Shown piece after piece: positions 7,053 to 45,118 of a stretch of DNA of 64,000 nt. Below the pieces are notes generated by a model. It was not told the DNA's origin. It saw only the letters and a program-made list of their open reading frames with translations, and did not search any database. The translations under genes were made by a program, and so were the position numbers. This stretch comes from Escherichia phage OSYSP. Where the stretch lies: sequence record MF402939; one strand, written 5' to 3'. How positions within the stretch are numbered: position 1 is the first letter of the stretch; each line of letters begins with the position of its first letter.

Positions 7053-9962
7053 TTATGAGTTATCTGGCTTAATGAGCTCACTCACAAGTTTTTTCAGTTC
7101 GGTTAATTCTTGCTCAAGTTTGTTAACTTTATCAGCTTGATAACGAAATGCACAAGCTAAATCCGCCATAATTACGTTATTATCAAGAGCTAATGTATCG
7201 TCCGCTTTATCAACAACAATTTGACGGTCTACATATTCTTCACCTTCTTCATTAACACCTATAACATCTGCAAAAATATCCCCGCCAGGAATTAATTTTA
7301 CATATTCCGGGTCTATTTTTAGTAGGTCTTGGGCTATTAAACCAAATCGCTGGATGTTGCTTCCATTGTATTTAAACATTGTAGGCAGCCACTGCATAAC
7401 GCGATCATAGCTTTCTTTTCCATCTGTATAAATTATATCATGCTTTAAATCTCTGTCAGAGTTGGCGGCCTTTTGAAAAATGAAATTTCCACTTGATGAC
7501 CATGTAGTTATATCGTTTGATGCTGGCTGAAACTGGAAGTTACAGAAAAAATTGCCATCACCACGAAGCCTTAACGAGCAAAAAGGCCAAGCATTATTTC
7601 CCTGTGGGATAAGACCCCAAGTTGCACGAATTGGATAACCACCAGTTGATTGTGTACCCCATGAAAGTCCAGGCGCCCATCCACCATCATTGTTAGGAAT
7701 AATCTCGCCCCAAACAAGAGCATTACCCCAATAGTTAGGATCATCCCAGCCCATTTGTTGGGTTTTGCCAGTGTATTGGGCGGAATGAGTTCTGCCGTCA
7801 GGGTAAAACTTGTGCATATAGGCCTGTATCCCTGCTTGATACAATTCTATTCCAAAAGATTCAATGTGTGTGTCGCCTCTTCTGATTAAACCAGCGATAG
7901 CGTAATCGTCATACCAATTGTAACGACTTACACCAGTCCATGTGTTTATGGGTGGATTCATGGTTGAAAATAGTTGTGACGCATTGCGTTCATTCCCGTC
8001 TGCATAAATACCAGCCCCCGGAGCTAATGAGATTGATTTTGCTCCTGAAAAAGTACCATTTTCATTAAATTGATAATAGTGAAACAAGTTATTATGAAAC
8101 ACACCTATTGTATGTTTTCCTACGCCTACTTGAGTTTCGAAATAAGACTGAGAAGAACCAATATCCTCGCCTTGTGTGTTCTTTAATTTTGAATGGTATA
8201 TACCTGCGTTTGCAGTATTTGCATTTTCCGTTTCATTTTCAACATTAAGGCTTAGAAATTTTGGTGCATGTTTTTCGCCAAGTCCTATATTGTTTCTAAT
8301 ACCATTCGCATCCTTAGCACCCGTACCACCAAATTGAATACCTAGTGGTAGCCATTGATTGGTTGTAGCATCATAAACGCCCCAATGATCCCCACCATCT
8401 GGAATGGTTAGATACTTGTTTTTATTTGGGGAATATAAAACTGTTTCACCAGAAGTCTGAAACAGCCTATCAACTCCTAAATTATATCTAGCACCTTCAA
8501 GTGTATCCGCTCCAGTACCACCAGCAATAATTGATAATGGAAGAGATTCCCATGAGATACCATCACCATTTATGTTTTTCTGGAGTACAATAAGCCCATC
8601 ATCTCGCATAACAAATCTATATAATCTATTATGCGAGTATAAAAAAGTATGAACCCCATCCTGCACAAGTGAGTCTATAAGGAGCGTCTGACGAGAAGCA
8701 TTAATATCCGACAGATCTGAAAGATTATTTTCTTTTAGTAACGATTTACCAATAATACCTTCAGCTTTTCCAGCAGCCACTTCTGCACGTCCAGCGTCGG
8801 TAGATGCGCTTTGTGCGCTACTAGCAGCATTACTAGCTTGTTGCCCGGCCTCAACAGCACTGTTACCCGCTTGTGTAGCGGAAATAGCAGCGGCGTCTTT
8901 TAGCACGGTAGTTTCGGACACAGCGGCATCCTTAATTGCTTGCGTCTCGCTTACTGCACTATCCTTAATAGTCTGTGTGTCAGACTTTAATTTTTCAACA
9001 TCTGCTTTTAAAGCTGTTGTTTCACCTACAGCGGCATCCTTAATTGCTTGCGTCTCGCTTACTGCACTATCCTTAATAGTCTGTGTGTCAGACTTTAATT
9101 TTTCAACATCTGCTTTTAAAGCTGTTGTTTCACCTACAGCGCTATCTTTAATTAGTTGAGTATCTGATTTTAGTTGCTCAACATCTGATTTTAAGCCTTG
9201 AATAGTGGTTACTGACTGACTAGCTGAGGTTGCAGAACTAGCTGCGTTAGTCTCACTATCTTTGGCTTTAGTCTCACTAGTTTTAGCATTTGTTTCACTA
9301 GTTTTAGCATTTGTTTCAGAGGTTTTTGCAGCAGACGCTGATGTAGCAGCTTGTGTAGAGAATGTTTCCGCCTCATTCCTAAAACCACTGGAATCCGCAG
9401 CGGAAGCGGCAGCATTAGTCTCACTGATTTTTGCTTTATCTTCACTAATTTTTGCAACAGCAGCAGATGCAGCAGCATTAGTCTCACTGATTTTTGCTTT
9501 ATCTTCACTAGCCTTTGCATTAATTTCGCTAGTTTTAGCTTTATCTTCACTAGCCTTTGCATTAATTTCGCTAGTTTTAGCTTTATCTTCACTAGTCTTT
9601 GCATTAGTTTCGGATATTTTAGCTGCTGCAGCGGATTCTGCAGACTTATTGGCTGACGTTGCGGACTGAGTAGCAGAAGTAGCTGATTGGGTAGCCGATG
9701 CTTCAGAAGCTTCCGCGGAAATCGCAGCTTCCTGTTCAGAATTCTTAGCATTAAGCTCTGAAGTCTTAGCAGCTATTTCAGAATCTTTTGCAGCCGCAGC
9801 AGATTTAGCAGTGGCCTCTATAGAAGATACTAACTCATTAGCAGTAATAGAGCTAATAGAATTTCCAAGAGTTACTGTGTATCTAGGAAATTTACTAGCA
9901 GTAGCTTTAGTATCATCAATATTTAATATTTGTTGTACAATAATCTTAGTAGTTATTGCCAT
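7053..9962 (-). CDS. L-shaped tail fibre protein (pb1-like) with C-terminal intramolecular chaperone domain
   Basis: 969 aa; Ala/Ser/Thr/Lys-rich repeat region encoded by tandem DNA repeats; C-terminal segment resembles autocleaving chaperone domains of fibre proteins; first gene of late module as in T5. Confidence 0.75.
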   Translation of the reverse strand: MAITTKIIVQQILNIDDTKATASKFPRYTVTLGNSISSITANELVSSIEATAKSAAAAKDSEIAAKTSELNAKNSEQEAAISAEASEASATQSATSATQSATSANKSAESAAAAKISETNAKTSEDKAKTSEINAKASEDKAKTSEINAKASEDKAKISETNAAASAAVAKISEDKAKISETNAAASAADSSGFRNEAETFSTQAATSASAAKTSETNAKTSETNAKTSETKAKDSETNAASSATSASQSVTTIQGLKSDVEQLKSDTQLIKDSAVGETTALKADVEKLKSDTQTIKDSAVSETQAIKDAAVGETTALKADVEKLKSDTQTIKDSAVSETQAIKDAAVSETTVLKDAAAISATQAGNSAVEAGQQASNAASSAQSASTDAGRAEVAAGKAEGIIGKSLLKENNLSDLSDINASRQTLLIDSLVQDGVHTFLYSHNRLYRFVMRDDGLIVLQKNINGDGISWESLPLSIIAGGTGADTLEGARYNLGVDRLFQTSGETVLYSPNKNKYLTIPDGGDHWGVYDATTNQWLPLGIQFGGTGAKDANGIRNNIGLGEKHAPKFLSLNVENETENANTANAGIYHSKLKNTQGEDIGSSQSYFETQVGVGKHTIGVFHNNLFHYYQFNENGTFSGAKSISLAPGAGIYADGNERNASQLFSTMNPPINTWTGVSRYNWYDDYAIAGLIRRGDTHIESFGIELYQAGIQAYMHKFYPDGRTHSAQYTGKTQQMGWDDPNYWGNALVWGEIIPNNDGGWAPGLSWGTQSTGGYPIRATWGLIPQGNNAWPFCSLRLRGDGNFFCNFQFQPASNDITTWSSSGNFIFQKAANSDRDLKHDIIYTDGKESYDRVMQWLPTMFKYNGSNIQRFGLIAQDLLKIDPEYVKLIPGGDIFADVIGVNEEGEEYVDRQIVVDKADDTLALDNNVIMADLACAFRYQADKVNKLEQELTELKKLVSELIKPDNS

Positions 9963-10384
9963 TATCTAGTTACCCCATCACTGATAAATACTTTACCCTC
10001 CATTATACGAAAAGAACTAATAGCTGATCCTATGACGTCTCGTGTCATAATTATATCATAGTATCCTGCAAAACGTTGGCGAGGGTTATACTTATCTCTC
10101 TCTTTGGTAGCTTTTTCGCCAATATTATCTACTGCCTCTACAGGTAAACTTATAGCTATAGCACCTTGAGCAGCATCAGTAATTTTAGTAGTAAAAGATG
10201 CCAAAGTTTCCGCATTCTCATCAAGCCCGGCCTTTATAGTACCCCTTAGGGAATACCCTGTTAAGTTAACAGGGGTATTTGTAGGTGGATAAGTACTATC
10301 ATCAACATCTAAGAATTGCATCATTAGACCATAAGGTACTTTCTCATCTATCACTAAGTCTATAACTCTATTTTCAGTACTCAT
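9962..10384 (-). CDS. Tail collar-like protein (T5 p132-like)
   Basis: 140 aa, same length and position as T5 p132. Confidence 0.55.
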
Positions 10385-33850: not shown

Positions 33851-34002
33851 TTTGACTTTTGCCAATTTCTTTGGATTACGTACGCGTGGGTGTGTCCAGT
33901 GGCCCCCCAGATGAGAATGAGTCTCATTACCGCCTGGTACTTAGCAGGCTAATAGTCCCGGCATGTTATCATTACACACCGGGACTATTTCAACTTTAAT
34001 TA

Positions 34003-34737
34003 CTACGCAACTTTTAATTTCTCAATATATTGTTGCGGGCTGCAACTATATTCTGCGCGTTCTTCTTCGGTCATACCTTCCCAACATAATTGCAGGCGGT
34101 CGGCTAGGAACTGATAATCATTATCATCCTCAAGAGATTCATCGATAAAGGTTTCACCTATCAATGTAACCCCAATCGATAGAATATCGTTAACGGCTTG
34201 TGCGTCCAGCGTTTTAAATCCGTATGATGCCGCCGCTGATAGCACGCCTTTATGATCATCAATCATCGTGAAATCAGCGTTCGGATATAATTGTTTAAAT
34301 AACTCAAAGTAATGGCTTTTATAAATAGCGTCTTTGCTGTGGTATATTTCGCTAACTTTATCAGCCTCAAAATATTTGTGTAGTGTATCGCGGGAAAATA
34401 CACGGATATTACTATCCCCACGCCCTCGCAATCCTTGTTTACGCAAATAATAATAATCCGACTTGCTCATCAGTCGAGCGGTGCAAATAATGTTTAATGT
34501 ATTTGCGTCATTCATGCACTGGCGCATATATGTAACAAGGGGCAATAAAGTATCTTGCATTATTAAATCATGTTTGCAGGCTTCATTTTTATACTTATTT
34601 AAATCTAAATTGCCCTCGCTATCAAAGCAAGGCGCTACACGATGGAAAGAATTAATGATAGTGCCGTCCAGATCCCAAATCATGACGCGGGAAATATGCG
34701 GGAAATTACGGGTAATATTCATTTTAACTTGATTCAT
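34003..34737 (-). CDS. dmp: HAD-family 5'-deoxynucleotidase (T5 Dmp-like)
   Basis: HAD motif I IWDLDGTI near N-terminus; start chosen at MNQVK (GGAGAA RBS 9 nt upstream) giving 244 aa; the track ORF extends to 34779. Confidence 0.65.
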   Translation of the reverse strand: MNQVKMNITRNFPHISRVMIWDLDGTIINSFHRVAPCFDSEGNLDLNKYKNEACKHDLIMQDTLLPLVTYMRQCMNDANTLNIICTARLMSKSDYYYLRKQGLRGRGDSNIRVFSRDTLHKYFEADKVSEIYHSKDAIYKSHYFELFKQLYPNADFTMIDDHKGVLSAAASYGFKTLDAQAVNDILSIGVTLIGETFIDESLEDDNDYQFLADRLQLCWEGMTEEERAEYSCSPQQYIEKLKVA

Positions 34738-34817
34738 TTTGTTACGTTCTCCATTAAAGGGATTTAGTTTATCCAGCATTGCCCGCTATTTATCAGCGGG
34801 CAATAATAAATCAACTA

Positions 34818-35561: not shown

Positions 35562-37226
35562 TTACGCGAAAAATTTACCGTTTTTAAAGTCGATCAAAGT
35601 GCGCTGACCGTTTGCATAGGTAATAACATGCGTTTGCGTCCAGCTTGACGCGCCAACGTTGTAACCCATGTCCAGACTACCAGCTACGCCAGCGGTATAT
35701 ACCCCGCCGTAAATGCTTGCCGTATGAGTATGCCCCGTGTTTAATTTGCCCAATTTCTTAAACTGTTTAGGATTGCCACGGCTGCCGTTAATGCCATTGT
35801 GACCGTGTACGCCGCACTCGATGCCTGCAATTTTAAATGATTGGTCAGTTGTTAGGAAAATGGCGTTAAATTCACAACCTGCAACCTTACGCAGCGCATA
35901 ATCAAGCACGTTGAAAGTATCGTCATGATCACCGATTGCCGCGTAAATTGCAGCATTTAGGCGGTGATATAGTTCCGCGTTTGCGGGATCGTCTTTAATG
36001 TTAGCATTACGATCATCAAGCCAACGGGATAGCGCTAAATCGTGGTTTGATTCCACGATGATTGTTTGAGAAAAATCGCGCTCCATTGACTCCAGCACGC
36101 GCCCCGTATCGATGAGATCATCCAGAACCTTATCACGTCCGGCGGCGTATTGTTTTGCTAGGAATACACCCGAAGCGCGGTTGTGATGGTTGCGGGATGT
36201 AAAATCATGCACGTCATGAATAAACTGATATTTAGGCTTGAGAATATCAAGCAAGCTATTTTCGCCAGCCCATGACGCAACGGCGCAATCGTCATCTAAT
36301 TTTTCGGCGTGAATATCGCCATATTGCAAGCCTAAAACATGCCCCGATGTTTCATAACATCCGGCGGGAGTGGCGCAAATATTCAAATCGTAAAACACGC
36401 CGCTTTCGTCCATCGTTTCAAGCTGGCGAACAAAAAATTCTCCGTCTTCGTCAAACTCAACAACAAGCGCACCGAAATTATGCAGCGCCTCGGCCTTTTG
36501 TCCTGCTTTCTGCTGGATGTAATTTTTTAGGGTTGCCGTTCCAGTTGAATACATACGACGCACTACTTCACCTTTTAAAGCTGGCACGCTTTCGGCGGTA
36601 ATTTTAGCGTGACCAATTGCCAGACCTTCCAGATTAAGCGCCGTTGCAGTTTCAGCGAATCCAGAAAGCGGATAATCTGCGGTTGGCAAAACGTTAATTT
36701 CAGCCATGAAAGCAAAACGGCGGTTATTTAAAAACACGTTTTTATTGCAGATATATTTGTCAAATGCGGAATCATATTTTATTCCTTCTGCACCCTCGCC
36801 ATTTTGAAAACCGTTTTTGTTATAAATAAACTTGCTAACCAGCAAATCAGCGCCGATATATTTAGCAAATTGCTCCAGTGAGGCTAAAAAGTTTTTATGC
36901 GGGAAAGTATTATTCTGAATCGACGTAATAATAAAGCGTTTACCCTGCTTTACTTCCCATTGCTCAACCGTGCTAGAAACAATCCCCGCCGCTTCTGGAC
37001 GCTCATCGTTTTTAATGGCTTTTGCTACTTTCGCCGCTTTCGGTTTAGCTGGTTTATTTGCTTCCAACCAGTCGCAGATAGCGGTCGAGTGTTTTGTTGT
37101 ATCGTAGACCGCTTTTGATATATCGTCGCAGACCTCCAGTTTAGTAGCGCGCAGACGTTTACCATAGAAATTAAAGTCAGCGGCCATTTTCAGGATAACG
37201 GTTTGTTTTTCTGCGGAAATAATCAT
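35562..37226 (-). CDS. A1: A1-like pre-early protein with metallophosphoesterase motifs
   Basis: 554 aa (T5 A1 about 556); calcineurin-like motifs GDIH, HDVHD, ESNHD, GHTH; sits beside an A2-like gene. Confidence 0.75.
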   Translation of the reverse strand: MIISAEKQTVILKMAADFNFYGKRLRATKLEVCDDISKAVYDTTKHSTAICDWLEANKPAKPKAAKVAKAIKNDERPEAAGIVSSTVEQWEVKQGKRFIITSIQNNTFPHKNFLASLEQFAKYIGADLLVSKFIYNKNGFQNGEGAEGIKYDSAFDKYICNKNVFLNNRRFAFMAEINVLPTADYPLSGFAETATALNLEGLAIGHAKITAESVPALKGEVVRRMYSTGTATLKNYIQQKAGQKAEALHNFGALVVEFDEDGEFFVRQLETMDESGVFYDLNICATPAGCYETSGHVLGLQYGDIHAEKLDDDCAVASWAGENSLLDILKPKYQFIHDVHDFTSRNHHNRASGVFLAKQYAAGRDKVLDDLIDTGRVLESMERDFSQTIIVESNHDLALSRWLDDRNANIKDDPANAELYHRLNAAIYAAIGDHDDTFNVLDYALRKVAGCEFNAIFLTTDQSFKIAGIECGVHGHNGINGSRGNPKQFKKLGKLNTGHTHTASIYGGVYTAGVAGSLDMGYNVGASSWTQTHVITYANGQRTLIDFKNGKFFA

Positions 37227-37576: not shown

Positions 37577-37984
37577 TTATTCGCCTGCGGCTTGTTTTAC
37601 TTCATCGGCAACGCCTAACAGTTGCGCCACGGCGTCCAGTGTTTCAAGTTTTGCACTTTCCAGACTTGCCAGATCATCGGCGTCTTTGATAATGCCGGAA
37701 TCAATAGCATGTTTAGCGATAACGCGTACATAGTGAGCTTTGCGGATTGAGCTACCGCCGCCAACTTTGCGCGGCTTATCGCTTTTCTGATACGCTTTCG
37801 CGCTGGTCAATTTTGACCGAACGGATACGGGAGAAGCCGCGCCCACTGCTTTTGCAATCTCTTTTAAACCGTAGCTATTTGCGAAATCTAAACCGTTTTC
37901 ATTGATTAACTGCTGATACATGGAAACGGCTTTTTGGGTGTTTTCTTCATTCCAAGCAAATTTTGCGGTTTTAACGTTAGTCAT
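37577..37984 (-). CDS. A2: A2-like pre-early DNA-binding protein
   Basis: 135 aa; GGAG RBS; basic central region; immediately upstream of the A1-like gene. Confidence 0.6.
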   Translation of the reverse strand: MTNVKTAKFAWNEENTQKAVSMYQQLINENGLDFANSYGLKEIAKAVGAASPVSVRSKLTSAKAYQKSDKPRKVGGGSSIRKAHYVRVIAKHAIDSGIIKDADDLASLESAKLETLDAVAQLLGVADEVKQAAGE

Positions 37985-39223: not shown

Positions 39224-39633
39224 TTATCCACTTGACTTTTATTTTCCAGTGGATAACTACTTATTTTATAAAATAAATTAATTGACTTTTATTTGTTAGT
39301 ATGCGTCGGAAAGATAGCAGACTAATAATTGCTAGGATGATAATCATGCTGGTGGATTGTAACGGCTTAAATTATTAGCAGACTATTAATCACGGAAAAT
39401 CTCATTAGCCAACTAACTATTTCATGATATATAATATACTTATAAATTAAGGAGAAATAATAATTATAAGAAATAATAGCTACAGTAAATATTAACTATA
39501 AGAAACTATCGGCCTAAGTGAGAACCACTATCATTTAAGTTATCCACAACGTTATCCACAGCACAAAATGATTTGACATAATAGGCGGTGATATAAGGAC
39601 TTTTACACAGACTTATCCACAGCTTATCCTACT
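39224..39633. promoter_or_regulatory. Divergent control region with DnaA boxes: inverted pair TTATCCACT/AGTGGATAA (39224-39256), palindrome TTATTTTATAAAATAA, perfect TTATCCACA boxes at 39540, 39552 and 39613
   Basis: Exact matches to the E. coli DnaA box consensus TTATCCACA read directly; duplicated TTGACTTTTATTT on both sides of the palindrome. Confidence 0.6.
39405..39435 (+). promoter_or_regulatory. Candidate promoter for the rightward pre-early operon
   Basis: TATAAT at 39430-39435 followed by ACTTATAAATTAAGGAGA, resembling the other early promoters; -35 is weak. Confidence 0.35.
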
Positions 39634-39914
39634 GTATAAATATACAAGGTAAAAAGGTAGTGTTAACAACTGCAATCAATTTTAAGCGGCCTAAAACGCT
39701 TTCTAACGAGCTAAATGCGGTGGGGTAATATTAAAGTAAAGTCTTCACCCGTCGCCCTGGTGGCTTCACTGTGTTTTGCTCTTTATTGCACCGCTGCGCG
39801 GTTAGCATAAAACTAGGCGCTAGGCAAGGAAAATAAAAAGGTAAAATAATATTTGCCCCTAGAAAGAAAATACCTTTATCATTCACTCACCGATTAACGA
39901 GGGAGGCCGAACAA

Positions 39915-41802: not shown

Positions 41803-41848
41803 TTAATAACGGGGCGTTATTTTCGCCCCGCTAACTAGGAGAATGAAA

Positions 41849-41998
41849 ATGGTTATTTTTCGAGCTATTCTGGCAGGTATCTTGGGCGCTATTTTATCGT
41901 TGTTTGCAATAGCTTTCGGTGTTCACGCCGTTATTGTCGGCGCGGGTATCGCCGTTTTTTCTTATCTGCTGGGCTGCATGATTAGTAAAGGAGAATAA
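41849..41998 (+). CDS. Small membrane protein (49 aa)
   Basis: AGGAG RBS; two hydrophobic stretches; below the ORF-track length cutoff. Confidence 0.45.
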   Translation: MVIFRAILAGILGAILSLFAIAFGVHAVIVGAGIAVFSYLLGCMISKGE

Positions 41999-42000
41999 AA

Positions 42001-42213
42001 ATGATCCGCAACGTTTCTCTTGCTCGTTCGAAAGGCTTTAAGCTGGTGGACGTTAACACGTTCGAGCGTGAAGATTGTAAAATCGAATATGTAGCGCGGA
42101 ATAAAAACGCCTTTCGTGTTACCGAGAAAAAATTCGATAAGCGCGGCAACGTGGTCGCTGAAACGGTTAAACATTTTGCCACCTTTTACGCTGCGTTTCG
42201 TGGGGTACTATGA
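42001..42213 (+). CDS. Hypothetical pre-early protein (70 aa)
   Basis: AGGAG RBS; basic; ATG 3 nt after the previous stop. Confidence 0.5.
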   Translation: MIRNVSLARSKGFKLVDVNTFEREDCKIEYVARNKNAFRVTEKKFDKRGNVVAETVKHFATFYAAFRGVL

Positions 42214-42335
42214 AAAGCGTTATCATTATTAGCCTTGCAATGGTTGGCGGTTTTACCGCCACCTTATTTAAAAATGATCCCCTTTTACTGGGGATTTTTA
42301 TGCTTTTATCTGGCTATCTGATTGGGAGGTTATAA
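42210..42335 (+). CDS. Small membrane protein (41 aa)
   Basis: ATG overlaps previous stop (ATGA); hydrophobic throughout. Confidence 0.4.
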   Translation: MKSVIIISLAMVGGFTATLFKNDPLLLGIFMLLSGYLIGRL

Positions 42336-42681: not shown

Positions 42682-42836
42682 AAAAGTTTTTAATAGCTGG
42701 CATGTTTCCGTTGTTGCCTTATGTAATTTGCTGGGCTTTATATGCTCATGGTGCTAGTGTTCCCGGTGTGGCTTCATTTGGTGTATCGGCGGGCTTTCTA
42801 GCTGGACTATTGGCAAGCGTATATTTACGCAAATAA
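42678..42836 (+). CDS. Small membrane protein (52 aa)
   Basis: ATG overlaps previous stop (ATGA); two hydrophobic helices. Confidence 0.4.
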   Translation: MKKFLIAGMFPLLPYVICWALYAHGASVPGVASFGVSAGFLAGLLASVYLRK

Positions 42837-42855
42837 TTAATAACGGAGCGTTATT

Positions 42856-43050
42856 ATGAGCAATAAAATTGTTGTAACCAAAATCAGTACAATGGTTGAT
42901 GTTTTTTACGTGCCCGATACGCCGGAGAATCGGCGAGCGGTCGAGCGTGGCGAGTATGATAAAGTGATTTATGATCACGATGGTTACTATCAACATTTGG
43001 TGGATTCCTACGGGGAGGAGGAAAAAATCACGCATCGACTACCAGACTAA
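42856..43050 (+). CDS. Hypothetical pre-early protein (64 aa)
   Basis: Last gene of the rightward operon; preceded by palindrome AATAACGGAGCGTTATT; acidic. Confidence 0.5.
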   Translation: MSNKIVVTKISTMVDVFYVPDTPENRRAVERGEYDKVIYDHDGYYQHLVDSYGEEEKITHRLPD

Positions 43051-43090
43051 TAATCACGGGGCGCAACTACCAGGGAGTGCCCCCAATTCT

Positions 43091-43113
43091 CAAATGAGAA
43101 TCATTCTCATTTG
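43091..43113. repeat. Perfect 23-bp palindrome CAAATGAGAATCATTCTCATTTG
   Basis: Read directly; same core as the 43447-43608 repeat family. Confidence 0.7.
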
Positions 43114-43128
43114 ACTGCGCCCGCGATG

Positions 43129-43187
43129 GTTAGCCTGCTAATGATTAGGGTGTTACGTGTCGCCTTGTGTGATCGTTAGCAGGCTAA
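43129..43187. repeat. 13-bp inverted repeat GTTAGCCTGCTAA / TTAGCAGGCTAAC with 33-bp spacer
   Basis: Read directly; could form a large hairpin. Confidence 0.6.
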
Positions 43188-43334
43188 CTAATTTTTAAGC
43201 CTCCTCCAATTTTGCCCTTGTTTTAGTACCCCCACCAAAATTAAACGCGTTAGAATGCGATCTAGGACGTTTTAGCGGTATACTAGAATTATTCACTACA
43301 TAGGAATACTGTATATTTATACAGTAGGATATCC

Positions 43335-43416
43335 TGTGGATAAGTCTGTTAATAACGCCTCAAAATGGCTAGGATTCTGTCAAATCAAATCGTGCTGTTA
43401 ATAAGTCTGTGGATAA
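43335..43416. promoter_or_regulatory. Two consensus DnaA boxes (TGTGGATAA) in repeated context CTGTTAATAAGTCTG
   Basis: Exact reverse-complement matches to TTATCCACA at 43335-43343 and 43408-43416. Confidence 0.55.
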
Positions 43417-43446
43417 CTTAAATAACAGTGTTTCTCACTTCCATTC

Positions 43447-43608
43447 TTAAATGAGAATCATTATCATTCGCAGTCCACTGTCTAACCGATAATCATTTCC
43501 TTTCTTAAATGAGAATCATTTCACTTTTTGAATAGTTCTCATTTCCTTTCTTAAATGAGAATAATTATCATTCGCATTCCACTTCTTAAATGATAATGAT
43601 TCTCATTC
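43447..43608. repeat. Five copies of 24-bp motif CTTAAATGAGAATCATTATCATTCG (one inverted), Fur-box-like
   Basis: Copies at 43447, 43504, 43550 and inverted at 43584, plus palindrome at 43091; core matches 15 of 19 positions of the E. coli Fur box GATAATGATAATCATTATC. Confidence 0.6.
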
Positions 43609-43637
43609 AAAGTCGCAGGGCAATTGCCCTGCGCTTT

Positions 43638-44239
43638 TGTGCAAATCCGACATTGCTCCACGGGTGTTACGTGCGGGCATGTATGTGCGAATCCGACAAT
43701 TTTTGGTAGTGTGCGAATCCGACCCTAAAAACTTTTGTGATGTGCGAATCCAACAATGAATTTTCCCAAAAACTCCAGCAATCACGAACTGCGTTCGAAT
43801 CCTGTGGGATATGTGCAAATCCGACACGGTTTTTCTAGGATTAAGATGTGCAAATCCGACAAGATTTTTGTGACTTCGATGAGAGGGTGTGTGATTGTAT
43901 AGGTTTGAGGAGAAGATGAGAGAGCGAGAAAAGTTTGGGAGGCTAGAAGGATGCGGGCGCAGGATTGGTGCGGAGCACCTGATTTGCGGGGATTTTGGGG
44001 AAGAGTTGAGATAATTTGGGAAGATTTGAGATAGGTGCAGAAAAAGTAAAATTTTATTAGCAAAATGGGGCAAAATAGCTTGACAAGTGAAAATTTCTGT
44101 GGCTCTAAAAACTCAGGCAATCATGGGCCTTCGGCCCGAAATAATGCTGCCATTTTCAAGAGATTATATGTTCCTAAAAACTTAGGCGTTTGTGCAAATC
44201 CGACCATAAATTTCTAGGAACACAATGTACAAATCCGAC
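43638..44239. repeat. Nine direct copies of 15-bp motif TGTGCRAATCCGACA
   Basis: Copies starting near 43638, 43684, 43711, 43741, 43812, 43847, 44190, 44225 and a degenerate one at 43785; motif has partial dyad symmetry. Confidence 0.65.
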
Positions 44240-44280
44240 AGTAATTTCTGGAAATGTGTTTTCAAAAAATGTCTCCTAGA

Positions 44281-44340
44281 AATAACCGCCCTCCCTATAA
44301 CCGCCCTGTATTAACCGCCCTGTATTAACCGCCTATTGCT
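44281..44340. repeat. Four tandem copies of about 14 bp AACCGCCCTNTATT
   Basis: ATAACCGCCCTCCCTATAACCGCCCTGTATTAACCGCCCTGTATTAACCGCCTATT read directly. Confidence 0.6.
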
Positions 44341-44761
44341 AGAGTTTCTAGGAATATGAAAACCGCCTGAGTTGACTAGAGAAACAGATTTAAAGTTTAA
44401 TGTAAACTCTAGAGTTAGTGCTCAACTATTCCTAGAAACTTAGGAGTCTAGAAGAAAGTGTTGTGCCATCCTAGCAGATGAGCGGCAACAGGTGTATCAT
44501 CTTGAACACAAATATTGCCTTTAAATATTTTTAGTTATTTAAAAGTAAATATACCCCCATTTCATGAGAGCTTACTCGTGGGGCGCGTGAGTATTACGGA
44601 AGACTTAGTAATTAGATCTATACTCGTGCTGTCGCAACGTATAGACGTAATACTAAGTGTAATAATCATCGCCCCTAGAGTTCAAAACAAGAGTTGTTTT
44701 TAATCTATGAGATTATTATAACATGTGCCGCAATGAGTTGTCAAGAAGATTTTGTTAATGT

Positions 44762-45118
44762 TTATACATCTCCTTCGAAATTGGTATTGGGATCGTAAAT
44801 CTTTTTGGCTCCTGTATTTAATAGGAATCGTTCTGCAAGTTGTGGGTGAATATCAAAGAACTCTGTACATCCTTCGAATCCCTTTAAATTACAGCGGTAT
44901 TTCTTAAAGTAGATATGAGCAGCGGCTTCTAGATCTCTAGGGTTATGGGTTTCATAGATTCCATACACATATAAATCGTCAAAACCTCGATAGACTATCT
45001 TATCTAAGTTTAGAGTTTGAATCCTATTATGTGGATTCATGCTAATACCGATCTTTGTTCTCTTAGGGATCTTTGTCAGATCCCTGTTCGCAAGAATATA
45101 TACTTTATATAGTGACAT
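44762..45118 (-). CDS. Possible GIY-YIG-like (T5orf172-type) domain protein
   Basis: 118 aa; N-terminal YKVYIL...KIGIS pattern reminiscent of GIY-YIG-like folds; weak assignment. Confidence 0.4.
   Translation of the reverse strand: MSLYKVYILANRDLTKIPKRTKIGISMNPHNRIQTLNLDKIVYRGFDDLYVYGIYETHNPRDLEAAAHIYFKKYRCNLKGFEGCTEFFDIHPQLAERFLLNTGAKKIYDPNTNFEGDV

Follow-up and report, generated by a model that had tools for sequence, protein, structure and literature searches.

Repeats beside the injection-stop nick motif of a T5-like phage resemble near-consensus Fur operators

Why T5 DNA stops entering the host cell after 8% of the genome is a question that reportedly goes back to Lanni in the 1960s and is said to have been open for about 60 years. 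According to a June 2026 PNAS paper (PMC13250531) the stop mechanism is poorly understood, and recent papers call the host factor unsolved. A 2023 paper on BF23 states that experimental studies of the region are lacking, and the function of the T5 direct repeat C (DRC) copies in this region has been described as "impossible to guess" (Davison 2020, 10.1101/866236). Here we ask what these repeats could bind. We analyzed 64,000 nucleotides of Escherichia phage OSYSP (MF402939), hereafter the window, in which the corresponding repeats form an array of palindromic units at 43421-43613, and found that the units resemble operators of the ferric uptake regulator Fur.

The repeat motif of the array, CTTAAATGAGAATCATTATCATTCG, is 25 nt long rather than 24 bp as given in the initial annotation. 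It has an exact copy at 43446-43470, near-exact and divergent copies at 43550-43574 (1 mismatch) and 43585-43609 (4 mismatches) and a copy at 43504-43528 with 6 mismatches that retains only the first 17 nt; no further copy with up to 5 mismatches occurs in the 64-kb window. The original count of four direct copies and one inverted copy holds if read loosely, with the copy at 43585-43611 serving both ways: it doubles as the inverted copy, with arms at 43447-43468 and 43589-43610 that are 95% complementary. Positions 43531-43544 hold a degenerate half-copy in inverted orientation. The related upstream palindrome, first described as a perfect 23-bp palindrome at 43091-43113, is indeed perfect and somewhat longer, TCAAATGAGAAT-C-ATTCTCATTTGA in a 12-1-12 arrangement at 43090-43114 with 100% complementary arms, and contains a Fur-type 9-1-9 site at 43093-43111. 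The core of the motif matches 15 of 19 positions of the classical Fur box GATAATGATAATCATTATC, as had been noted. The 9-1-9 register of a single dimer, AATGATAATnATTATCATT, fits far better, with 17 of 18 matching positions at 43450, 43554 and 43589 and 16 of 18 at 43093.

We scored the window with a symmetric 19-nt (9-1-9) position weight matrix (PWM) derived from the best site of each of 15 footprinted or gel-shifted Fur regions of E. coli K-12. For twelve of the chosen sites the center agrees with the strongest-site coordinate published by Chen et al. 2007, allowing for genome-version offsets (0, +777 and +1976 to +1978). The training operators score between 12.4 and 27.7 bits with a median of 22. 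Such scoring, which had been suggested as a check, gives 28.2 bits at 43450 and at 43589, 27.7 bits at 43554 and 26.8 bits at 43093, so the four window sites lie around the maximum of the sampled host operators. Sites 43450 and 43554 share all 18 non-central positions with the gpmA operator AATGAGAATTATTATCATT; this operator has been gel-shifted and is top-ranked in the genome scan of Chen et al. 2007, where it scores 27.4 bits (PMC2189734). Half-sites of the GAGAAT/ATTCTC form had earlier been taken for mismatches, but real operators often have them, among them those of gpmA, ryhB, fecI, fhuA and exbB. When gpmA, ryhB or all five GAGAAT-type operators were removed from the training set, the window sites still reached 22.3–27.8 bits, in most cases equal to or higher than the top score left in that set.

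Each strong unit of the array is overlapped by a secondary site at exactly +6 bp (43450/43456, 43554/43560 and 43589/43595), and a 6-bp (or 3-bp) overlap spacing characterizes Fur clusters (Chen et al. 2007, PMC2189734). Unit 1 (43450-43474) comprises AATGAGAATCATTATCATT at 43450-43468 with 28.2 bits and the +6 site at 43456-43474 with 11.8 bits. Unit 2 (43554-43578) combines AATGAGAATAATTATCATT with the overlapping +6 site AATAATTATCATTCGCATT (27.7 and 19.1 bits), a pair with the classical three-hexamer Fur-box architecture that matches the classical 19-mer at 15 of 19 positions on the minus strand. Unit 3, AATGATAATGATTCTCATT (43589-43613; 28.2 bits, with a weak +6 site of 5.3 bits), has the opposite polarity and forms an inverted repeat with unit 1. 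The gaps between the strong units hold weaker sites at 43421, 43485, 43508 and 43525, namely the Fur-like site AATAACAGTGTTTCTCACT at the end of IRC' (43421-43439, 11.1 bits) and the degenerate units or half-sites ACCGATAATCATTTCCTTT, AATGAGAATCATTTCACTT and, inverted, GAATAGTTCTCATTT (43485-43543; 11.3, 14.2 and 9.8 bits).

Could so many good matches arise by chance? The array at 43421-43613 has 10 positions of at least 5 bits in 200 nt compared with a window mean of 0.53 per 200 nt. At a probability of 3e-9 per position for at least 26.8 bits, the expectation for 64 kb is 2e-4 such sites, and 4 were observed. Among 200 dinucleotide shuffles of the window the maximum was 24.9 bits, with a mean of 0.05 sites of at least 20 bits, and 2000 shuffles of a 600-nt region reached 19.4 bits. 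A chance origin of the Fur-type sites is excluded, and correcting for a few hundred alternative transcription-factor motifs leaves that unchanged. The array of Fur-box-like palindromic repeats reported initially is thus real: it scores in the top range of footprinted operators, beyond chance, and it lies in non-coding DNA. With known Fur operators it has in common the 9-1-9 match, a score within the operator range and the clusters overlapping at +6; no overlap with the -35/-10 elements of a repressed promoter was found.

We estimate at about 50% the probability of our preferred explanation as a whole, in which the array units are genuine near-consensus Fur operators, each with a one-dimer 9-1-9 site and a weaker overlapping site 6 bp off, and have the architectural role proposed below. 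Naked array DNA would very probably be bound by Fur in vitro, and Fur occupancy of the array during infection is likely. The Fur clusters of E. coli (gpmA, ryhB, fhuF and iucA/aerobactin; PMC2189734) show the same 19-bp 9-1-9 site, the same 6-bp overlaps and the same clustering over 100–200 bp. Unlike them, the phage array is located off-promoter on virulent phage DNA between converging units, and unlike the 15 sampled host operators it packs, together with the upstream palindrome, three to four sites at or above their top score into about 500 bp.

The window originates from a T5-like phage (Demerecviridae, Markadamsvirinae). Database comparison of 43000-44300 returned 446 matching phage records, with a top identity of 93% (Salmonella phage PMBT29 and Escherichia phage mar004NP2), and the matches always map to ~8.5–10.4 kb of the relatives' long terminal repeat. 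As judged from homology and synteny with T5 9468-9637, between IRC' and the palindrome J/nick motif/direct repeat D (DRD) block, 43421-43613 is the homolog of T5 direct repeat C copies 1–4 and palindromes E–I in the injection-stop signal (iss) region of the terminal repeat. The T5 record AY587007 labels 9468-9637 "direct repeat C copy 1-4" and "palindromes E, F, G, H, I"; next come palindrome J, the "major single-stranded nick 1, 7.9%" and nine DRD copies, of which 1–6 are within the terminal repeat and 7–9 beyond its boundary at 10139. The DRC block belongs to "Repeat Region 3", a candidate iss (Davison 2020, bioRxiv 10.1101/866236). The window array, whose identity with this annotated block had escaped the initial annotation, is a second T5-like phage's version of the element, homologous to and syntenic with T5 Repeat Region 3 (Heusterspreute 1987, Wang 2005, Davison 2015/2020); both phages share the order terminator, palindrome D, IRD'-spacer-IRC' with DnaA boxes, DRC, palindrome J/nick and DRD. 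They differ in that unit 1 of the window is a better Fur match than unit 1 of T5 (28.2 vs 22.6 bits) and in that T5 is without the perfect palindrome found at 43090-43114.

The repeats themselves have been known since 1987. What we add is a reading of the units as candidate consensus Fur operators and of palindrome D as a putative SOS box. Neither Fur nor LexA is mentioned in Davison 2020, which does mention DnaA, in the 2023 BF23 paper or in two 2026 papers; an earlier mention in Davison 2015 (PMC4743489) or Heusterspreute 1987 is possible. Literature searches combining T5 or T5-like phages with Fur box, ferric uptake regulator or LexA returned nothing relevant.

If the array matters to the phage, it should be visible in relatives. 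Using the DRD repeat, which is unrelated to the Fur motif, as an anchor we retrieved 32 T5-like loci from IMG/VR, representing 24 distinct iss regions. Every locus with upstream flank has 3–6 sites of at least 18 bits within ~310 nt upstream of the first DRD, and the array is retained in all 24 distinct regions. Most loci also have a 26–28-bit site 545–825 nt upstream of the first DRD, equivalent to the 43093 site of the window and missing from T5. Among the 24 iss sequences we counted 55 distinct 19-mers of at least 14 bits, and some phages carry the perfect consensus with 29.6 bits. That 55 different 19-mers maintain their scores indicates that the sequence drifts while the Fur score is kept. 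The first unit has a constant offset of 143 nt from the LexA-like box in 24 of 24 regions; three of its five variable columns are low-information PWM positions (the center and a G/T-A/C pair), and the remaining two carry high information. The connection with iron-regulated receptors drawn in the initial annotation did not survive this comparison, as DT57C, which uses BtuB (Davison 2020), has 28.2-bit sites in the same array and all T5-like phages examined possess it.

Relatives at a greater distance, with diverged flanks, tell us more. Erwinia phage KEY (A1 66% identical) has ~10 sites of 15–23 bits and Klebsiella phage Roth37 (A1 72%) has three of 20–21 bits. All units in these two phages are direct-oriented, so the conserved part is a local dimer-type palindrome and not a long-range complementarity. 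Vibrio phage D254 (A1 34%) has one 23.3-bit site, positioned like the upstream palindrome of the window. The window's order of elements, that is, terminator-like hairpins, LexA-type box, DnaA boxes, Fur array, GC hairpin/nick motif and eight DRD copies, is kept in the Erwinia, Klebsiella and Proteus relatives. Shewanella phage 1/4 was rejected as a comparison since its architecture is not T5-like, and Vibrio phage Achelous was left out as it is permuted and the equivalent region was not captured.

Which other host proteins could meet at this site? The palindrome TACTGTATATTTATACAGTA at 43307-43326, palindrome D of T5, resembles a LexA SOS box. It matches TACTGTATATATATACAGTA at 19 of 20 positions, with 0 such matches expected from 100 shuffles, and has the CTGT-N8-ACAG pattern. 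This box is conserved in the T5-like loci and recognizable in the Erwinia, Klebsiella, Proteus and Vibrio relatives. Two pairs of DnaA or DnaA-like boxes follow on the minus strand (43335-43416), TTATCCACA at 43335 and 43408 and TTATTAACA at 43347 and 43396, corresponding to IRD'-spacer-IRC' of Davison, who has described DnaA boxes in T5 relatives (Davison 2020, 10.1101/866236). Part of this assembly has an inverted partner: 43310-43440 is 82–86% complementary to 39516-39646 (Repeat Region 2, IRC-spacer-IRD), which contains four DnaA boxes (39540-39621), a 17.7-bit Fur-like site at 39517 that pairs with the weak site at 43421-43439, and a half-decayed LexA box, TACTGTATAAATATACAAGG. Fur-, LexA- and DnaA-type sites are therefore all present again, inverted, 3.7 kb upstream.

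On its other side the Fur array ends ~20 nt short of the 7.9% nick motif. The GC-rich hairpin CGCAGGGCAATTGCCCTGCG at 43614-43634 on the plus strand (T5 palindrome J) is terminator-like with 8 pairs and contains CCCTGCGC at 43627-43634 (plus strand), which in T5 carries the annotation "major single-stranded nick 1, 7.9%". It is followed by eight irregularly spaced plus-strand copies of DRD, TGTGCRAATCCGAC, at 43638-44239, in the non-coding injection-stop/terminal-repeat end. The junction CCCTGCGC-TTT-TGTGCAAATCCGAC between nick motif and first DRD (43627-43651) is nearly unchanged in the Erwinia, Klebsiella and Proteus relatives, and CCTGCGC-N3-TGTGCRAATCCGAC is conserved as far as the Proteus phage. 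We considered the DRD repeats as Fur half-sites and rejected this, as all score 0.6 bits or less; they also matched no familiar host-factor consensus.

Does the array control a promoter? We found that it lies between converging sets of open reading frames (ORFs), the plus-strand pre-early set ending at 43050 and the minus-strand early set starting from ~44762, and that it is flanked by two terminator-like hairpins. The pre-early genes dmp (34003-34779), A1 (35562-37226) and A2 (37577-37984; annotated as DNA-binding protein, phrog_1725) are encoded on the minus strand. The rightward operon that comes after them ends at 43050 with the last plus-strand pre-early ORF (42856-43050), and the palindrome at 43090-43114 comes directly beyond this ORF, between terminator-like hairpins (43055-43190). 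One of these, a long plus-strand hairpin at 43129-43188 with 17-nt arms (94% complementary) and a T-run, is terminator-like for the rightward operon, and T5 carries a putative rho-independent terminator annotation in the corresponding area (AY587007). A sigma-70 promoter scan of 42800-44600 gave 5 sites compared with 4.3 expected, i.e. no enrichment, and none was strong; one weak match (43315-43288, minus strand, 9/12) overlaps the LexA box. With promoter-like sites at chance level and the array between converging ORFs, we rejected a Fur-regulated promoter as the main function, and iron-responsive promoter control, raised in the initial annotation, is not supported.

We propose instead that Fur would act at the injection stop. 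Fe2+-Fur dimers, present in the host beforehand, would meet the array as the first 8% of the genome enters. They would fill the three strong units, the upstream palindrome and several weak sites and would coat the ~190 bp that end the first-step-transfer DNA. The Fur-coated stretch would adjoin the near-consensus LexA box and the four DnaA-type boxes and stop ~20 bp before the 7.9% nick motif, and a host nucleoprotein complex of Fur with LexA and DnaA could form at the boundary between first- and second-step transfer. The role would be architectural and not that of an iron-responsive switch of gene expression. We suggest an architectural role because there is no promoter at the array for Fur to act on and because the host chromosome is broken down within minutes. 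Phage lambda offers a precedent for a host DNA-binding protein employed in this way outside coding DNA, with IHF binding site I1 of cosB; protein and process differ from those considered here, and no evidence ties the T5-like array to packaging.

The need for a host component follows from in vitro work. Ejection through FhuA proteoliposomes goes to completion (Davison 2020, 10.1101/866236; PMC13250531), so the stop needs a host factor other than the receptor. The calculated T5 7.9% shear point (9618) falls within the last T5 Fur unit (9614-9638). Participation of the array in the transfer pause is plausible, and we hold it tentatively, at less than even odds. The DnaA-box model of Davison (10.1101/866236) follows the same logic, in which conserved host-protein sites in the iss hold the incoming DNA, and DnaA boxes are found in the window too. 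In that model DnaA, being largely membrane-associated, provides the anchor, whereas Fur has no known membrane association; Fur and LexA sites would extend the list of candidates and would not replace DnaA. A more ambitious and rather unlikely version is that Fur (iron), LexA (DNA damage) and DnaA (replication state) share one composite landing pad at the boundary, and that their joint occupancy would be the host component of the stop or a checkpoint gating second-step transfer. A virulent phage would then read the iron, SOS and replication status of its host, or use abundant proteins as a clamp, before committing the remaining 92% of its genome.

What would follow can be stated for each part. 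If the units are top-affinity Fur operators and palindrome D is a LexA box, a tangle of repeats is reduced to a few named host proteins that the cell can do without or that can be manipulated. Fur sites with an architectural role, off-promoter and on virulent phage DNA, would be unusual. If Fur binds without an effect on infection, T5-like DNA would still be a strong Fur sink.

Several points weigh against the Fur interpretation or its link to the stop. The case for Fur rests wholly on sequence. The first unit is AATGCGAAT in most T5-like phages, with C at a high-information position, and AATACGAAT in T5; both forms still reach 22.6–24.7 bits. The T/C-rich left flank CTTCCnTTyTTA is conserved as well, and the repeat unit exceeds the length of a Fur site. 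This flank and the variation at high-information positions of the first unit imply that the phage motif is not optimized for Fur alone. Close relatives are 85–93% identical overall, and their conservation alone is weak evidence. Proteus phage 1 (A1 42%) has degenerate units only, and Vibrio phage D254 keeps LexA and DnaA boxes without a Fur array, which is thus not universal in the family. Fur is cytoplasmic, and how its binding to entered DNA would halt DNA pushed from the capsid lacks an obvious mechanism. The cell can also dispense with Fur, and binding is lost in the apo form; a stop relying on Fur only would therefore fail in iron-starved cells, which are the richest in FhuA.

Could the units be sites for a phage protein instead, the alternative named in the initial annotation? 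They might be iteron-like sites for a pre-early protein, for example A2 alone or with A1, that releases or processes DNA at the iss, the likeness to Fur boxes being incidental or reflecting competition with Fur. We regard this as unlikely, though it retains real weight. A1 and A2 are needed for second-step transfer according to the abstract of Davison 2020, and A2 is annotated as DNA-binding (phrog_1725). As in iteron arrays, unit number and spacing (29 or 35 nt) differ between phages, and the flank conservation described above reaches past the 19-nt Fur site. A protein made only after entry, however, cannot itself cause the stop, and the match to Fur operators spans all 18 specified positions and includes the +6 sites, with variation tolerated at low-information positions among others. 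Near-consensus sites should, moreover, bind Fur in an iron-replete cell anyway.

Two further observations bear on a phage-encoded binder. TGCGAAT is preferred in many phages, and this core is found in the neighboring DRD repeat TGTGCGAATCC too; DRC and DRD cores do not co-vary, however, the window having GAGAAT in DRC and GCAAAT/GCGAAT in DRD. The common TGCRAATC core of DRC and DRD is thus no clear sign of one shared binder. With a phage-encoded homolog or mimic of Fur in mind, Pfam analysis of 10 terminal-repeat (first-step-transfer) proteins detected no Fur-family domain. The AlphaFold model of A2 (22-sequence alignment, pLDDT 85) is predicted to be all-alpha, with two helical halves and a disordered linker at approximately residues 62–76. 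A Foldseek comparison with the PDB was uninformative (best E-value 0.42), and with no significant structural match for this all-alpha model the A2 fold appears uncharacterized.

The classical iss idea ascribes the stop to the DNA structure itself: inverted repeats and palindromes would extrude or fold near the nick and block the portal, the tail or the membrane channel. Secondary structure is among the mechanisms proposed in the literature (PMC13250531). As single strand, the segment 43420-43645 has a folding energy of -38.7 kcal/mol (z = -8.5), and 43055-43200 reaches z = -6.35; in neither case was any shuffle as good. The comparative data lend this no support. Across 8 T5-like arrays RNAalifold gave a covariation term of +0.71 and compensatory changes in 2 of 50 pairs, a comparison of little power given how alike the sequences are. 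Nor is complementarity over long range conserved, since the first and last units of T5 are poor complements and KEY and Roth37 have direct copies only; the conserved symmetry is the local 9-1-9 alone. Complete ejection through FhuA proteoliposomes also means that the DNA holds no intrinsic plug, and taken together we consider DNA structure as the sole cause improbable.

Yet another function is conceivable for the right-hand copy of the terminal repeat, where the array might help terminase to recognize or process concatemer junctions, with host proteins as accessory bending factors. By analogy, strong Fur sites occur upstream of E. coli nohA and nohB, prophage homologs of the terminase small subunit (Chen 2007 Table 4, PMC2189734). 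The T5 repeat region spans the terminal-repeat boundary (10139), and the right-hand copy of the array is ~0.5 kb from the physical right end. This reasoning is positional and by analogy only; the Fur units are 500 bp from the boundary, which is flanked by DRD and DRA repeats, and we judge a packaging role very unlikely. The nohA and nohB Fur sites, in cryptic prophages next to cos, are predicted or gel-shifted and may parallel Fur boxes near phage DNA ends.

Multicopy Fur boxes on replicating DNA sequester Fur, as exploited in the Fur titration assay (FURTA), and two terminal-repeat copies per genome in hundreds of genomes per cell would amount, by estimate, to thousands of sites for a comparable number of Fur molecules. 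An iron-responsive phage, or one that titrates Fur off host or phage promoters and so derepresses iron uptake, e.g. for an iron-dependent ribonucleotide reductase or a receptor, could build on this: the sites appear strong enough to titrate Fur, and T5 infection is already tied to Fur via repression of fhuA (PMC7553319). We nevertheless rank this as the least probable explanation, because host DNA is degraded in the pre-early phase (10.64898/2026.04.02.716235), so that host promoters cannot respond and titration, unlike in FURTA, is without an obvious target; because the array shows no promoter enrichment and sits between converging transcription units; because no Fur-type site of at least 15 bits was found in the ~54 kb of the window scanned outside the terminal repeat, leaving no Fur-controlled phage genes evident there; because BtuB-using DT57C equally has the array; and because derepression of a receptor is useless to a phage already inside. 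The titration of host genes suggested in the initial annotation is accordingly unlikely to matter. Our preferred reading remains that of Fur operators with an architectural part at the boundary between first- and second-step transfer.

A few minor features complete the description of the locus. All Fur-type matches of at least 15 bits in the window fall in or directly beside the terminal repeat, and these include moderate sites at 34110-34128 (20.1 bits), 33910-33928 (15.3 bits), 41842-41860 (17.6 bits) and 42209-42227 (17.2 bits). The site at 34110 is located within the 3' end of dmp, in a position equivalent to ~150 nt from the left end of T5, and several relatives retain it; those at 41842 and 42209 overlap ORF start codons. 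An Rfam scan of 42800-44800 gave only sub-threshold matches (mir-62 with 24.5 bits at a threshold of 70, PrrF with 21.5 bits at a threshold of 90), and a non-coding RNA at the region was rejected. ORFs of 112–156 amino acids can be drawn across the repeat region (e.g. 43603-44120, minus strand), and many database records label "hypothetical proteins" there. These ORFs are probably not genes, given the repeat structure, and annotation pipelines thus place hypothetical proteins over a non-coding element. Beyond the DRD copies, deeper in the non-coding region, 44283-44325 and 44343-44440 contain three tandem units resembling TAACCGCCCTGTAT and a perfect inverted repeat of 14 nt, AGTTTCTAGGAATA / TATTCCTAGAAACT.

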